Source of the DNA: a virus
Lineage: Duplodnaviria > Caudoviricetes
Length of the DNA: 45,308 bases
IMG/VR virus record: IMGVR_UViG_3300037424_000558
Coordinates: 1 to 45,308 of that record
Direction: 5' to 3' (one strand)
The notes below the pieces were generated by a model. That model did no database searches, had not been told where the DNA came from, and worked only from the letters and a program-made list of their open reading frames with translations. Below, one piece after another: positions 1,579-45,110 of this stretch (positions are counted from its first letter, which is position 1; each line of letters begins with the position of its first letter). The position numbers and the translations under genes are program-made.

Positions 1579-1674
1579 ACCTAACGTTTGAGATTATGAG
1601 ACGGTTTCGTTATTTGCGAAACTGTGCCGAAGGCCAAGCCGGTATTCCGGCGAAGCTCATAATCTCTGTTAGGT
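1579..1674 (+). repeat. attC-like recombination site C
   Basis: ACCTAAC-GTTT-GAGATTATGAG(1590-1600)...three internal hairpins...CTCATAATCTC(1656-1666)-T-GTTAGGT. Confidence 0.8.
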
Positions 1675-1755
1675 GATGAATTTGCTACGACGATGAACTG
1701 GCACGGATGCCAGTGAAACATGGACTTATATTTTAAAAGTCAAAGGAGAATTAAA

Positions 1756-1962
1756 ATGAGAAAATAATACATTGATGAATTAAATTCATTAGAAGAGAGA
1801 ATGATAAAGGCTGAATACTTTGCTGAAAAAATACCAGTTCTTAGGGATGTTATTTTGGAAAATAAATATACCGAAGATGAGAAATACATTCAATCTGGAA
1901 GAACAGTTAGCTATTACAAATGATTAGACAGACACGATGTCTGGCTTTACTGTTATGATTGA
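1756..1962 (+). pseudogene. Disrupted cassette gene (MRK*YIDELNSLEERMIKAEYF...YYK*LDRHDVWLYCYD*)
   Basis: Strong RBS AAAGGAG before ATG 1756; in-frame TAA at codon 4 and TGA at codon 56; the frame fills the unit between sites C and D. Confidence 0.5.
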
Positions 1963-1975
1963 CTGCAAATTTTTC

Positions 1976-2030
1976 ACCTAACGCTTGCGCGTAGACGCCG
2001 TTTCCAATGGCGTTTGGCGCGCTGTTAGGT
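1976..2030 (+). repeat. attC-like recombination site D
   Basis: ACCTAAC-GCTT-GCGCGTAGACGCC...GGCGTTTGGCGCGC-T-GTTAGGT, 55 bp. Confidence 0.8.
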
Positions 2031-2099
2031 GATGTGCCAAAAGCGGAGTAAATTACATAAGCCATGGATGGCTTGAATAAAACATGGGAGATAAAGAAA

Positions 2100-2429
2100 A
2101 TGGATTTAATAAAACAATTTGAAAAAGAAAGTGGTCTTACATACCCAAAACATGACATGTCGGCTCAAGCCAATTTTGATGAACTATATGAAGAGTGGCT
2201 TGAAAATAAATTACGATGGATTGACATATCATACGACCTACCCAAAGAATCGGAAATTGTTGATATAATTGAAAAAAACTCAAACCGCCGAATACCGGAT
2301 GTTTTATTTAAAGCAGGTAAATTCTATTATTCAGTTTACGGTATATCCGAAATGGTTGAATTAACGACAGTTAAGTATTGGTATAAATTACCATCTATTC
2401 CAAAGCTCTGCACGGATGCAGAGCCGTGA
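2100..2429 (+). CDS. DUF551-like phage protein (cassette gene)
   Basis: RBS GGGAG before ATG 2100; WIDISYDLP...VKYWYKLPSIP matches the W-x-x-x-x-x-x-LP ... V-x-x-W-x-x-LP pattern of DUF551. Confidence 0.6.
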   Translation: MDLIKQFEKESGLTYPKHDMSAQANFDELYEEWLENKLRWIDISYDLPKESEIVDIIEKNSNRRIPDVLFKAGKFYYSVYGISEMVELTTVKYWYKLPSIPKLCTDAEP

Positions 2430-2442
2430 ATTTTGGCATTTC

Positions 2443-2521
2443 ACCTAACGCTGAGAATGGCCGAAGTTTTTTCGTCAGAAAAAATTTGGGGCGTATTTCG
2501 CCCGGCCATTCTCTGTTAGCG
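2443..2521 (+). repeat. attC-like recombination site E
   Basis: ACCTAAC-GCT-GAGAATGGCCG(2453-2463)...CGGCCATTCTC(2503-2513)-T-GTTAGCG. Confidence 0.8.
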
Positions 2522-2665
2522 GCTGTATTTTTTTTTGAACTATGACGAAACAGGAGGTTGAGGAACCAGTAAAAAAAGTTCGTTTTTTTGCTCTTTTTTA
2601 TTAAATAATACTTGCTTTTTTGGTCGATATATATAGTATGTACTATACTGTATTTAAGAGAGGGT

Positions 2666-2926
2666 ATGAAAATGAATATAACAGCAAACACAATAAAGTC
2701 AGGATCTAAGAACCTGTCTCAATCATGTACTTCGTTTGGGTGGGATAGTTATCTTATTGATAGTGATGACAATGTTATTGAGATATACACTAATAATGCT
2801 TCATCGGTTGGTCGCGCTCATAAAGGTGCTATTAAATATTTTCAAAATAATAGTAATAGTAAAATTTATACAAGAAAAAGTGGTGGGGATTGCTCATCAT
2901 ATGATGAAAGAACTACTCGGATATAA
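2666..2926 (+). CDS. Hypothetical protein (cassette gene)
   Basis: RBS GAGAGGG before ATG 2666; first of three tandem ORFs in the unit 2515-3366. Confidence 0.65.
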   Translation: MKMNITANTIKSGSKNLSQSCTSFGWDSYLIDSDDNVIEIYTNNASSVGRAHKGAIKYFQNNSNSKIYTRKSGGDCSSYDERTTRI

Positions 2927-2936
2927 GGTGATTATT

Positions 2937-3104
2937 ATGATATTAATAGCAATAGAACAAAATATGTATCAAGTTAAAAATTCAGTATACAAAAAATTAC
3001 TCAAATATTTTTCTGAGGATGAAGATAAATATAATAATTTGCTTCAAGAAATCCAGAATATGAATGAATCTACCGGTGTTGTTCAAACATTTTATTATAA
3101 ATAG
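2937..3104 (+). CDS. Hypothetical protein, 55 aa (cassette gene)
   Basis: AAGGTG RBS and ATG 2937 in the frame of track ORF 2736..3104; fits between neighbours without overlap. Confidence 0.55.
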   Translation: MILIAIEQNMYQVKNSVYKKLLKYFSEDEDKYNNLLQEIQNMNESTGVVQTFYYK

Positions 3105-3106
3105 CT

Positions 3107-3322
3107 ATGTCACAGGGTCAATACATAACCGCCCTATACAAAGCCCATGCAGCCCGTGAACAAGCGCGAGCGCACCTGATCGCGTTCATCGAAAACCACC
3201 CGATGTCAGGACGACAAAAGGCAATTTTATTCGGGTGGGGTGAGAATAATTATAATCACCGGATCAAGGCGATATCGGATAGTAAACTGATTGAGGCGGT
3301 GGAGATTTTGAGCCGACACTAA
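3107..3322 (+). CDS. Small protein, possible helix-turn-helix regulator
   Basis: MSGRQKAILFGWGENNYNHRIK segment resembles an HTH; last gene of the unit. Confidence 0.5.
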   Translation: MSQGQYITALYKAHAAREQARAHLIAFIENHPMSGRQKAILFGWGENNYNHRIKAISDSKLIEAVEILSRH

Positions 3323-3347
3323 GTCGGCGTTATTGGTAGGAAGTATT

Positions 3348-3366
3348 AAAAAATATTGCCGCTAAC
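3348..3366 (+). repeat. Left half of a truncated attC-like site F (end of array)
   Basis: AAAAAATA-TT-GCCGCTAAC is the inverse complement of the unit start GTTAGCGGC-TG-TATTTTTT at 2515; no matching GTT half found downstream. Confidence 0.65.
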
Positions 3367-3446
3367 TATAATTAAATGAAACTCGGATTAGACGAAATAA
3401 ACATTCGTGATAAGTCCAGAATTGGCGGATTAGACGAAGTAAAATT

Positions 3447-3926
3447 TCATACAAATAATCCAGTCGGATCAATCTTTTTTGTACGGTCAAAATATTCCCC
3501 AGGAGAACCGTCAAAATGCAGGTGTGGGCCGAAACTATATCCGGCGTCTCCGTATTGACCAAGTTTTTCACCTTGTTTAACAGTTTGACCAATTTTTACA
3601 ATATTTTCGGTTAGGTGGCAATATCGGAAACAATATGATTTCCCATCTATCAGAATACGCAAAATTACCATATTCCCCACAGAATCTTGAGACCGAAGCC
3701 ATCGAAAACGTTCGTCGTAAATGTCATAATCGAAATTAATTACACCGTCAGCCACCGAGATACAATCTCTATTCGCGTGAAATAAGTTTTGTCCCGGCCT
3801 ATTTTGATCTGGGACTGCGTTTACAAAATCAATGCCGTCATGGAATTGCTCGACCCCGTTTAGAATTCGCTTCCCATAACCGGAGGTAACATATTTGTCA
3901 TGTACCGGATAAATTAATTTGCTCAT
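3447..3926 (-). CDS. M23 family peptidase, endolysin
   Basis: VTSGYG, HDGIDF (HxxxD), YCHL, GPHLHF (HxH) motifs; adjacent to holin. Confidence 0.88.
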   Translation of the reverse strand: MSKLIYPVHDKYVTSGYGKRILNGVEQFHDGIDFVNAVPDQNRPGQNLFHANRDCISVADGVINFDYDIYDERFRWLRSQDSVGNMVILRILIDGKSYCFRYCHLTENIVKIGQTVKQGEKLGQYGDAGYSFGPHLHFDGSPGEYFDRTKKIDPTGLFV

Positions 3927-4728: not shown

Positions 4729-4835
4729 GCGGCAACGGTTCCCGGCGGGTTCGATTCCCGCCGCCGCAAACCGGGCAACCGGACAACCTCCGAACAGAGG
4801 TTCCTCTGACCGTTTGTTAAACTGGTCGGAGGTTG
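4729..4835 (+). ncRNA. Candidate structured RNA with a tRNA/tmRNA-like T-arm
   Basis: GGCGGG-TTCGATT-CCCGCC T-loop hairpin inside GCGGC/GCCGC; CCGG-GCAA-CCGG; CAACCTCCGA/TCGGAGGTTG stem; GC-rich intergenic island. Confidence 0.4.
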
Positions 4836-4858
4836 GAATGATAGGATAAAGGGTAAAT

Positions 4859-42994: not shown

Positions 42995-43079
42995 AAAAAG
43001 TAAACAAGTAAAGTGTGAAAAAATCCCTGATACAACAGAGTTTAAATTATAATCTGGATATAACTTAATTTGTCAATTA

Positions 43080-43330
43080 AAATACCCAAAAAAACCCTAT
43101 TATATGCAAATAATAGTAAAATAATAGACTATATTAAGGAAGGAATACAAAAATAAGGGGTATTATTATTGTATTATATGTATTATATTATATATTATAT
43201 AATATATATTTATATATATACTGTATAAATTTTTATGATAATAACATAATAGTGCTAATAACGATAATTTTTAACGTGATACTTCCTTTATATGTGTTTG
43301 AAAAATTGTATTATCTCTATTATTGTTTAT
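43080..43330. other. Extremely AT-rich non-coding region, candidate replication origin/unwinding element
   Basis: Long (TA)/TATTA-rich run at about 43160-43260 between divergent transcription units. Confidence 0.4.
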
Positions 43331-43491: not shown

Positions 43492-43671
43492 ATGAGAATT
43501 AAACACCCAGAAACACTATATGAATTAATAAAACATATAGAGACCAGTATACGATATGCTAAAGATAACGGCAAAAATATAGAAATTTTACTTGGTGAAA
43601 GTATTTATCCATTATTGGAAAATCTTAAAGAAGATTATGAATATTTGGAACTTGCAAAACAGAATGAATAA
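43492..43671 (+). CDS. Hypothetical protein, 59 aa (not in ORF track); first unit of array
   Basis: GAGGGT RBS; MRIKHPETLYELIKHIETSIRYAKDNG... Confidence 0.65.
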   Translation: MRIKHPETLYELIKHIETSIRYAKDNGKNIEILLGESIYPLLENLKEDYEYLELAKQNE

Positions 43672-43725
43672 TGACCAGAGCCGCCAAGGATGGCGGCGAT
43701 ATTGTAGATTAAACTGCATTATTGC

Positions 43726-43799
43726 ACCTAACGTTTGCGCATACACGAAGCCGCGAAGCGGTTTGGGTTTGTACTCAAACCGTGTATGCGCTGTTGTGC
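43726..43799 (+). repeat. attC-like recombination site A
   Basis: ACCTAAC-GTTT-GCGCATACACG(43737-43747)...CGTGTATGCGC(43781-43791)-T-GTTGTGC. Confidence 0.8.
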
Positions 43800-43840
43800 G
43801 AGGGAACGGGCTACAAAATTAAATTACATAGGAGAATATT

Positions 43841-44038
43841 ATGCTATTAGATTGCCCTGTCTGTTTCAAGAAGCCTCAAAAAATATTTGACAATGGTTTT
43901 CATGGGACAAAATCTTATACCTGTTGTGGAATTAAAAATATATTTGGAAAAGAATTTGAACCTGAAAGAAAAAGAGATTGGAATGAGGCTGCCTCAATTG
44001 TTAAATGTTTTATAGACAAAAATAAGTTGGAACGATGA
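43841..44038 (+). CDS. Small Cys-rich (zinc-ribbon) protein, cassette gene; Lar-like pattern
   Basis: AGGAG RBS; CPVC...TCC...WN motif. Confidence 0.6.
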   Translation: MLLDCPVCFKKPQKIFDNGFHGTKSYTCCGIKNIFGKEFEPERKRDWNEAASIVKCFIDKNKLER

Positions 44039-44053
44039 AACGCCCGTTCTTTC

Positions 44054-44152
44054 GCACAACGGTAAGATTACAAGACGTTTTTGCTTTTGCAAAAATGTGG
44101 TCGCCAGACCCGAGGCCACGCAGGTGGCCGGAGCTTGTAATCTTAGTTATGT
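44054..44152 (+). repeat. attC-like recombination site B
   Basis: GCACAAC-GG-TAAGATTACAAG(44063-44074)...CTTGTAATCTTA(44134-44145)-GTTATGT. Confidence 0.8.
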
Positions 44153-44216: not shown

Positions 44217-44246
44217 TTGACGGTGTATGTATATTATTAATATATT
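44217..44246 (+). promoter_or_regulatory. Candidate internal promoter of the NARP1 unit
   Basis: TTGACG at 44217 followed by an AT-rich -10 region just before ATG 44253. Confidence 0.45.
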
Positions 44247-44252
44247 AAATAA

Positions 44253-45110
44253 ATGAGTTACGATATTAAAAAAACTATTATAAATCTTGATGAGAATTTT
44301 GCCCCTTATGGGGATGGTATTCCATACCAAAAATTTATGTTCCCAAGCAGATGCGAAGATCACGTAAAGTTGTCGAAAATAAATGGCAATGAAGTTATAA
44401 TCACTACACGGATAAAATCATCTGACGATATTATTTTTCTGTTATTGGCGACCGATGCAATACGCAGGATGGGCATAAAAAGCATTGAAGTATTTATCCC
44501 CTATTTCCCTTATGCCAGGCAGGACAGAATAATGGTTGAGGGCGAACCTTTCTCACTAAAGGTATTTTCGGATTTAATCAATTCACAGGACTATGAGAAT
44601 GTTACCATTTACGATGTTCATTCCGATGTTGCAACCGCATTAATAGGCAACGTAAAGCCGATTTCTAATCATGCATTTGTAAAATCAGTATTGCATGGTA
44701 AAGAAAATTACTTAATTGTTTCGCCAGATGCTGGAGCGTATAAAAAAATATTTAACTTATGTTCGTCAATTGAATATAAAGATGAAATAATATTATGCAA
44801 TAAATACCGGGATGCTTCTACCGGAAACATTAAACGTATAGATTGCGAGATATACAATTTTAAAAACAAGGATTTATTTATAGTTGATGACATTTGTGAT
44901 GGCGGGGCAACTTTTAACATGATTGCCGATGAGTTCAGAAAACGTGGAACGTGCGGGGAAATTAATCTAATAGTTTCGCACGGGATATTTTCAAAAGGTT
45001 TGGATGTATTTCCGAACATTGATAATATTTATACCACGAATTCTTTTTGCGACATTGCGCCACACAACAAATTGACACAGATAAATCTAAAAGGAGAATT
45101 ATTAAAATGA
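44253..45110 (+). CDS. Ribose-phosphate pyrophosphokinase-family protein (Adps-like, NARP1)
   Basis: IPYFPYARQDR, DVHS, VSPDAGA, IVDDICDGGATF, VSHGIFSKG, TTNS motifs; ATGA-coupled to the Nampt-like gene. Confidence 0.92.
   Translation: MSYDIKKTIINLDENFAPYGDGIPYQKFMFPSRCEDHVKLSKINGNEVIITTRIKSSDDIIFLLLATDAIRRMGIKSIEVFIPYFPYARQDRIMVEGEPFSLKVFSDLINSQDYENVTIYDVHSDVATALIGNVKPISNHAFVKSVLHGKENYLIVSPDAGAYKKIFNLCSSIEYKDEIILCNKYRDASTGNIKRIDCEIYNFKNKDLFIVDDICDGGATFNMIADEFRKRGTCGEINLIVSHGIFSKGLDVFPNIDNIYTTNSFCDIAPHNKLTQINLKGELLK

Follow-up and report, generated by a model that had tools for sequence, protein, structure and literature searches.

The window, by which we mean the whole stretch of 45,308 bases analyzed here (IMGVR_UViG_3300037424_000558), is the complete circular genome of a tailed phage; a 127-base terminal overlap closes it into a circle of 45,181 bp. 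Its recognizable genes encode terminase, portal, capsid, sheath, and baseplate proteins, RecE/RecT, primase, helicase, and lysis functions, and the best matches of its terminase are about 30% identical. A cassette array sits in the early-gene region across the record ends, from 43.7 kb round to 3.4 kb. In this array, units bounded by inverted arms are joined by hairpin sites, each running from an AAC that ends one arm to a GTT that starts the next. The parts of the array are listed here on the + strand.

The array begins with an orphan end arm (43714–43732) that follows a 59-aa open reading frame (ORF; 43492–43671); its partner start was not found. Hairpin site H1 (43726–43799; AAC ends at 43732, GTT starts at 43793) leads into unit A (43793–44060), whose arms (43793–43811 and 44042–44060) pair over 9 bp, a 2-nt mismatch, and 8 bp (9+2+8) around a 65-aa ORF (43841–44038) with no family match. 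At H2 (44054–44152; AAC ends at 44060, GTT starts at 44146), the downstream arm is partnerless. Between H2 and H3 lie a Prs-family gene (44253–45110, with a promoter-like box at 44217) and a Nampt-family gene (from 45107 across the terminal overlap, then 1–1383). This pair has the arrangement of NARP1, an NAD-rebuilding counter-defence pathway (Osterman 2024), and is located inside the array with unmatched flanking ends; it is absent from the ten related phages examined.

A second orphan end arm (1567–1585), after a 58-aa ORF (1389–1565), is followed by H3 (1579–1674; AAC ends at 1585, GTT starts at 1668), to which a hairpin in an unrelated phage contig, G350, is 90% identical. Unit B (1668–1982; arms 1668–1685 and 1965–1982, 9+2+7) carries a gene (1756–1923) whose ribosome-binding site is good but whose reading frame is broken by a stop at codon 4 (position 1765). 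It is joined through H4 (1976–2030; AAC ends at 1982, GTT starts at 2024) to unit C (2024–2449; arms 2024–2042 and 2431–2449, 9+2+8), which holds a 109-aa ORF (2100–2429) with no family match, and this in turn through H5 (2443–2521; AAC ends at 2449, GTT starts at 2515) to unit D (2515–3366; arms 2515–2533 and 3348–3366, 9+2+8), with a promoter-like box at 2612 and ORFs at 2669–2926, 2937–3104, and 3107–3322. The cassette proteins of the window belong to no Pfam or PHROG family and have no tblastn match in the loci fetched. After the last arm of unit D there is no hairpin but the motif T-N5-TA-NN-TG, which has the inner-box spacing of the folded hairpins; this stretch (3348–3380) is a putative attI-like landing site. 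Just past it, two 23-nt direct repeats (3384–3448; 87% identical, 42 bp apart) may be accessory binding sites or an operator.

Applied to both strands of the remaining 37 kb, the same detector called no hairpin; one extra structure near 4.8 kb, a GC-rich stretch (4730–4838, about −30 kcal/mol) after an 82-aa ORF, lacks the geometry of the class. A very AT-rich, palindrome-rich segment at 43040–43300, where the direction of transcription switches, is a possible origin or promoter region. No tyrosine recombinase was found among 41 window proteins compared with PHROGs, which include ORFs in and around the array (100 ORFs in total), and on this comparison the array lacks the adjoining integrase gene of a complete integron. 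It does have the makings of a CALIN, defined by at least two attC-type sites within a few kb and no integrase: five sites lie in about 4 kb of the circle, as called with our own hairpin detector and not with the model of IntegronFinder. Signs of a live array (the attI-like end at 3366, variable neighbors in sequencing run X1) stand beside signs of decay (three orphan ends, one broken ORF). Only one sequencing run, possibly the source sample, is listed as containing the stretch, and no RNA dataset is listed. Ten near-complete relatives, with terminases 33%–43% identical, were compared; nine have no arm pairs, so the array is not a trait of the phage family, and one carries a single unit of 10 bp, G·T, and 9 bp (G024:C1:19133-19385). 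A search of capsid-protein loci for related arrays confirmed none.

Pairing of the unit ends

The four arm pairs that the first-pass annotation had placed at 43793/44060, 1668/1982, 2024/2449, and 2515/3366 are all present. Exact 9+2+7 pairs running from GTT to AAC within 3.5 kb occur four times in the circle, always in the array, and in none of 300 dinucleotide shuffles, the pattern having been derived from the observation itself. Non-cognate ends pair at 4–9 of the first 9 positions and at only 0–4 of positions 12–18, against 7/7 of the latter for cognate ends. Paired ends had been ascribed to every unit; four units have them, but three ends (43732, 44146, and 1585) are partnerless, and the ends of the 2.6-kb stretch from 44146 round to 1585 do not match each other. 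Likewise, of the mismatch described as fixed, position 11 on the + strand is G·T in 4/4 units, but position 10 varies between T·T (three units) and G·T (one).

Imperfect terminal inverted repeats of 18–19 bp around short units could suggest non-autonomous, MITE-like transposons. We find this barely credible: a target-site duplication is absent at 4/4 units, no transposase occurs among the 41 scanned proteins, the repeats differ between units, and at each end the same AAC adjoins either a hairpin or the attI-like site.

The rule is better defined in other genomes. A pattern scan of 185,579 genomes returned three loci, all in Bacillota. One of them, on a Vallitaleaceae chromosome (G001, C1:3449737-3610787), has 183 called hairpins over 161 kb; 172 cassettes of up to 1300 bp (10 longer ones were dropped) yielded 117 unique arm pairs. 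In these, the fraction matching is 0.85–1.00 at positions 1–10, 0.00 at position 11, 0.74–0.97 at positions 12–19, and 0.05–0.31 beyond. Position 11 is unpaired in 117/117 pairs (G·T in 115, C·T in 2), and position 10 is paired in 99/117. The class rule is 10 bp, G·T, and 8 bp, with only position 11 constant, in place of the "always 9 bp, 2-nt mismatch, and 7–8 bp" first proposed. Judging from the sequences compared, the 2-nt bubble is a trait of this phage group, and the constant of the class is the G·T at position 11. Covariation of the outer arms, named at the outset as a check, is present: across 108 core-intact G001 pairs, mutual information at positions 12–19 is 0.85–1.72 bits (shuffle maxima at most 0.21), each of the four pair types is represented, and 106 outer arms are distinct. 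The same pattern is seen in a second genome and in metagenome contigs.

Viral contigs fall into two groups: one with short arms, of Bacteroidota type, and one with long arms, in which hairpins of the window recur. Bacteroidota-type phage cassettes (127 unique, from 55 of 124 loci) pair to position 9–10 and again only at positions 12–15, with G·T at position 11 in 71/101 core-intact cassettes. In the long-arm group, 15 units from five other contigs were selected by arm match, which leaves only positions 10 and 11 unbiased; position 11 is unpaired in 15/15 and position 10 in 13/15. The site P12002L_attC1 of Polaribacter phage P12002L also belongs to this wobble-marked class. Searches with fixed patterns were less productive: the strict two-arm pattern had no match in viral contigs, and the loose pattern gave 119 loci there, of which only 4 seeds were called as hairpins and about 2 were convincing, the rest being chance. 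In 46 related phage records and 300 random Bacillota genomes, the loose pattern did not exceed a reversed-pattern control except in G001; it is thus uninformative about small arrays, and nothing in the 300 Bacillota genomes suggested that large ones are widespread.

In G001, the cassette family that occurs most often has a length of about 640 bp and accounts for 47 of 182 cassette starts. Its arms are imperfect, with two core mismatches and only 5 outer pairs; perfect arms are therefore not needed to spread. Arms were also held to be cassette-specific. They do differ between units, but the arm pair of unit B encloses a different, 214-aa gene in contig L257.

These observations bear on the chief rival to the reading that we prefer. 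It accepts the same system and takes the outer arm as a scar of cassette making or repair, one end having been copied or corrected from the other in a folded circle, so that the recombinase has no need of it. The variety of outer arms (106 among 108 cassettes, with no consensus), the dependence of arm length on lineage (19 versus 15 bp), the spread of the 47-copy family with imperfect arms, and the reuse of one arm pair around different genes (L257) are all in its favor. Copying or repair, however, would not leave position 11 unpaired in 117/117 pairs, nearly always as G·T on one strand, nor does it account for pairing that ends sharply at position 19. We consider a scar unlikely, and prefer to see the arm as part of the recombination site.

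Mobility, polarity, and gene orientation

That units move individually holds at the level of the class, as identical cassettes occur among different neighbors in other phage contigs and in the bacterial array. Run X1 may be the source sample; there, a unit-A-like end is joined to an H5-like hairpin at AAC in one contig, and in another an H4-like hairpin follows the end at 1585. No recombination, circle junction, or skipped junction was seen. Among 188 phage cassettes there are 57 homologous pairs. With a different neighbor in front, the 5' hairpin keeps an identity of 0.96 (14 pairs); with a different neighbor behind, the identity of the 3' hairpin is 0.42 (13 pairs), against a background of 0.43. 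This result comes down to about four independent changes of context in three or four contigs. Identical hairpins in G001 have the downstream side in common 70 times and the upstream side 3 times, duplicate counts in which the 47-copy family weighs heavily.

Since the 5' hairpin travels with the unit, each hairpin is part of the unit on its 3' side (window + strand), and the crossover is probably at AA|C. The hairpin after a unit is not its own. The mobile pieces would run from 43732 to 44059 (unit A with H1), 1585 to 1981 (unit B with H3), 1982 to 2448 (unit C with H4), and 2449 to 3365 (unit D with H5). With a crossover at AA|C, the window + strand would be the analogue of the integron bottom strand. 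When circular junctions were reconstructed and folded, the circle was 5.6–16.8 kcal/mol more stable than the integrated junction in 4/4 units, and the + strand of the window folds more stably in 4/4 window circles, as in 172/172 G001 circles. The arms had been said to come together only on circularization; this is so for continuity with the hairpin, but a panhandle could also form in a linear single strand.

The strand that carries the genes differs between phage and bacterial arrays. In phage cassettes, the ORF is on the window-like strand in 82 cases versus 6 (39 have no clear ORF); in G001, genes are on the other strand in 111 cases versus 0 (63 have no clear ORF). The canonical order, a gene followed by its own attC, is found in the bacterial arrays of the class and not in phage cassettes. 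This inversion weighs on the possibility that the arms act in mRNA, where the 5' untranslated region would pair with the 3' untranslated region, G·U allowed, to control the processing or translation of each gene. In phages, the G·T does lie in the coding strand, and in 4/4 units it is the + strand that gives the more stable fold. Yet the same rule governs the bacterial array, whose genes lie on the other strand (111 versus 0 in G001) so that the pair becomes A·C in RNA, and the arms are in register with the AAC/GTT junction. We give this explanation very little credence and continue with arms that belong to a DNA recombination site.

Phage and bacterial cassettes carry different cargo. Among phage cassette proteins, 45 of 85 were scanned, and 20 match PHROGs, 12 of them DNA methyltransferases; from G001, 45 of 103 were scanned, with 10 PHROG matches and 0 DNA methyltransferases. 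Phage contigs G349 and G350 have no tblastn match to the terminase, portal, capsid, or sheath of the window, yet share hairpins and arm types with it. This sharing points to a common, host-linked cassette pool.

The downstream ends of phage arrays suggest where new cassettes may enter. Among orphan downstream ends, 30/40 lack the hairpin G, and these 30 share T1, T8 A9, and C12 G13 (21–26 of 30 each), a motif that resembles the hairpin inner box; some may be decayed hairpins and not attI sites. In folded H1–H3, the inner TA is 7 bases from AAC when the bulge is discounted, and it is likewise 7 bases from AAC at 3366. In the long-arm group, the arrays of the window, G349, and G350 share the ending AA|C-TA-N4-TA-NN-YG. 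From these motifs, we infer that the site at 3366 is an attI-like landing site of the phage's own.

Site geometry and the array-adjacent recombinase

The class has much in common with canonical integrons (IntI1 and Vibrio chromosomal integrons): single-gene cassettes between hairpins, invariant AAC/GTT, a perfect 7–9-bp core in each cassette, a hairpin-less entry site for new cassettes next to a tyrosine recombinase, and G·T pairs that favor one strand. AAC/GTT triplets with complementary RYYYAAC/GTTRRRY boxes occur in all five sites and the four units, some boxes being off RRRY at single positions. The window sites are imperfect hairpins of 55–99 nt (−18 to −27 kcal/mol), as canonical attC sites are, with a range of about 57–141 nt (Nivina et al. 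2016, PMC5027507). The canonical 5–6-nt spacers and the 2–3 extrahelical bases near L'' opposite AAC are missing from the window sites. Instead, the inferred active strand has 2–4 extra bases beside AAC, on that same arm; offsets before an 11-bp perfect stem are 4/1 in H1, 2/0 in H2, 4/1 in H3, and 3/1 in H5, and H4 has offsets of 4/1 plus an internal loop. This is the reverse of the arrangement reported for canonical sites, where extrahelical L-box bases on the opposite arm and a G·T bias favor one strand (Nivina et al. 2016, PMC5027507).

Canonical arrays provide a control for the length of the arms. In 11 Vibrio anguillarum cassettes (13 sites, taken by pattern as our detector missed most Vibrio repeats), the ends match at 0.82–1.00 for positions 1–9, about 0.5 for positions 10–11, and 0.00–0.45 for positions 12–19, and in phage TJE1, whose array is canonical, two cassettes match over 8 bp only. 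Since both controls pair only in the core, nothing about the first block is unusual; what sets the class apart is the fixed mispair and the outer block. The suggestion that pairing exceeds canonical need survives in this form: its first 9 bp are ordinary integron core pairing, but the fixed mispair and the outer 8 bp are absent from the 11 Vibrio cassettes. The class differs from canonical integrons in the length of its outer arm, 18–19 bp or, in Bacteroidota, 15, and in the G·T fixed at position 11. This arm may resemble the binding arms of Xer sites.

The bacterial array offers a candidate for the enzyme. The G001 array ends at a hairpin-less arm; roughly 100 bp away is the 3' end of the gene for a 336-aa tyrosine recombinase. 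This protein scores 186.9 bits against TIGR02249 (cut-off 265), below the integron-integrase threshold, and 8/8 aligned homologs have a gap of about 30 residues, relative to Vibrio IntIA, at the IntI insertion (I2 helix region). Family members have domains PF00589 and PF13495, with a SAM-like core-binding region, and the catalytic R193, K218, H283, R286, H309, and Y318 are invariant in 52 sequences. A sample of 150 Clostridia contained six more homologs; five loci were fetched, and 4/5 have class arms beside the gene (in L426–L429 arms were scored directly, as the detector missed most hairpins). Downstream of five homologs on Bacteroidota plasmids lie short genes in the same orientation; where several junctions are intact (L247, L249), the arms are of the short form. 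The sixth, from Clostridium and linked to IS91, has no array. At L251:9980-12017, a relative that lacks the N-terminal extension lies together with an IS91-family transposase, and no array is present; L430 likewise has none. The class arrays of the Bacteroidota plasmids L247, L248, L249, and L250 have been invaded by oppositely oriented group II introns and by IS110 elements. A 49%-identical member of the recombinase family, named TnpF in one record, occurs on many plasmids, including those of Acinetobacter.

Many homologs have a 55-residue N-terminal domain. PF07443 (HARP) is matched at or above cut-off in 3/7 proteins scanned; the G001 protein itself misses the Pfam HARP model (E 0.01), and a profile search with the domain matches the HARP domain of SMARCAL1 (4o66, E 0.0036). 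The model of the domain (pLDDT 87) has a beta-beta-alpha-beta-beta-alpha topology, and its best structural match is the XPB N-terminal domain with a middling Z of 5.7 (rmsd 2.3, 48 aligned). Folds of the HARP/XPB type bind distorted or branched DNA. In L426, the array-adjacent recombinase has no HARP-like N-terminus in frame, which argues against a strict need for this domain. The class recombinase differs from canonical integrases in lacking the IntI insertion, in often having this HARP-like N-terminus, and in pointing towards the array. By class membership, an enzyme of this family probably serves the phage in trans, from the host.

Phage arrays without an integrase are known. Qi et al. (2023, PMC9892861) reported 17 phage CALINs, rich in DNA methyltransferases; these are likewise attC-like arrays without integrase in phage genomes, and P12002L has sites of the present class. 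As far as the available text of that report goes, the sites are treated as canonical attC, and no extended arms, mispair, inversion, phage attI-like site, or separate recombinase is noted. One could regard the window units, too, as ordinary cassettes of canonical IntI with incidentally long arms; the GTT/AAC triplets, the 7–9-bp core pairing, hairpins of 55–99 nt, and the five of six tested phage sites that work with IntI1 (PMC9892861) would agree with this. It is improbable in our view, because the outer block is absent from 11 Vibrio and 2 TJE1 cassettes, the bulge geometry differs, and class arrays adjoin recombinases without the IntI insertion. Furthermore, P12002L_attC1, the one class site among the six, was the sole site not recombined by IntI1, having been cloned without its outer arms (PMC9892861). 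We keep to an IntI-related but distinct enzyme.

Relatives of such an enzyme have been described in other settings. Smyshlyaev et al. (2021, PMC8138268) defined an integron-like subgroup of tyrosine recombinases in which the insertion is incompletely conserved; in the available text of that study, no cassette arrays or sites are tied to the insertion-less members. Firmicutes have been found almost devoid of integrons, recombinases without the IntI domain near attC having been set aside (Cury 2016, Neron 2022); Bacteroidota and Firmicutes are listed among integron-bearing phyla (Ghaly 2021). We found no description of extended arms, a fixed mispair, inversion, or a phage landing site in the literature searched, whose coverage stops short of subscription journals and bioRxiv supplements. 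Two further systems invite comparison. Archaeal XerA differs in acting on double-stranded dif sites. In "inverse integrase" integrons, attI lies at the 3' end of the integrase gene, as here, but the enzyme is a true IntI with the insertion and the attC sites are canonical.

A probable host-supplied system and its implications

The repeats at the ends of the units are the signature of an integron-like system that departs from integrons in site geometry, integrase insertion, and phage gene orientation. We think it probable that this system has extended, wobble-marked outer arms and that phages use a host tyrosine recombinase in trans. The repeats would form the outer arms of the hairpin sites and, with the G·T as a mark, lengthen the arm that an IntI-related but distinct host recombinase binds; the outer arm had been put forward earlier as a possible recognition determinant, and we, too, would give it that role. 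The window + strand would fold as single-stranded DNA at two hairpins, the host recombinase would cut at AA|C, and excision would join the 3' arm of a cassette to its own hairpin. The resulting circle is predicted to have a continuous stem of 18–19 bp with G·T at position 11, then a 2–4-nt bulge and the inner stem, and it would insert at a double-stranded, hairpin-less site, here at 3366. Insertion at this site would make unit D the newest cassette and the 43.7-kb end the oldest. The long stem of the circle would tip the balance from excision towards circle insertion. The G·T (A·C on the opposite strand) would mark the strand as extrahelical bases and G·T bias do in canonical sites. In this manner, the phage would bring only the sites, and the enzyme would come from the host. 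More speculatively, the HARP-like N-terminus of the recombinase might read the outer arm or the mispair, replacing the IntI insertion in strand choice.

A broader reading is one that we hold only tentatively, with less than even confidence. It posits a second, IntI-independent integron branch in Bacillota and Bacteroidota, in which a HARP-like domain reads the G·T-marked arm in place of the IntI insertion. Unrelated phages with attI-like sites of their own would hijack the host enzyme and run a shared, inverted cassette pool rich in counter-defence genes, built from arm-and-hairpin backbones that can be reused and may show how cassettes arise.

An array of 183 sites beside an insertion-less enzyme suggests that a whole branch of integrons has been missed by definition. 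If this enzyme recombines folded single strands without the IntI insertion, it is a natural test case for the evolution of single-strand recombination out of Xer-type enzymes. Arms that are reused around different genes bear on the origin of cassettes. Finally, if phages carry a landing site and invert the genes, they are users of a gene-shuffling machine of the host and not its passive carriers.
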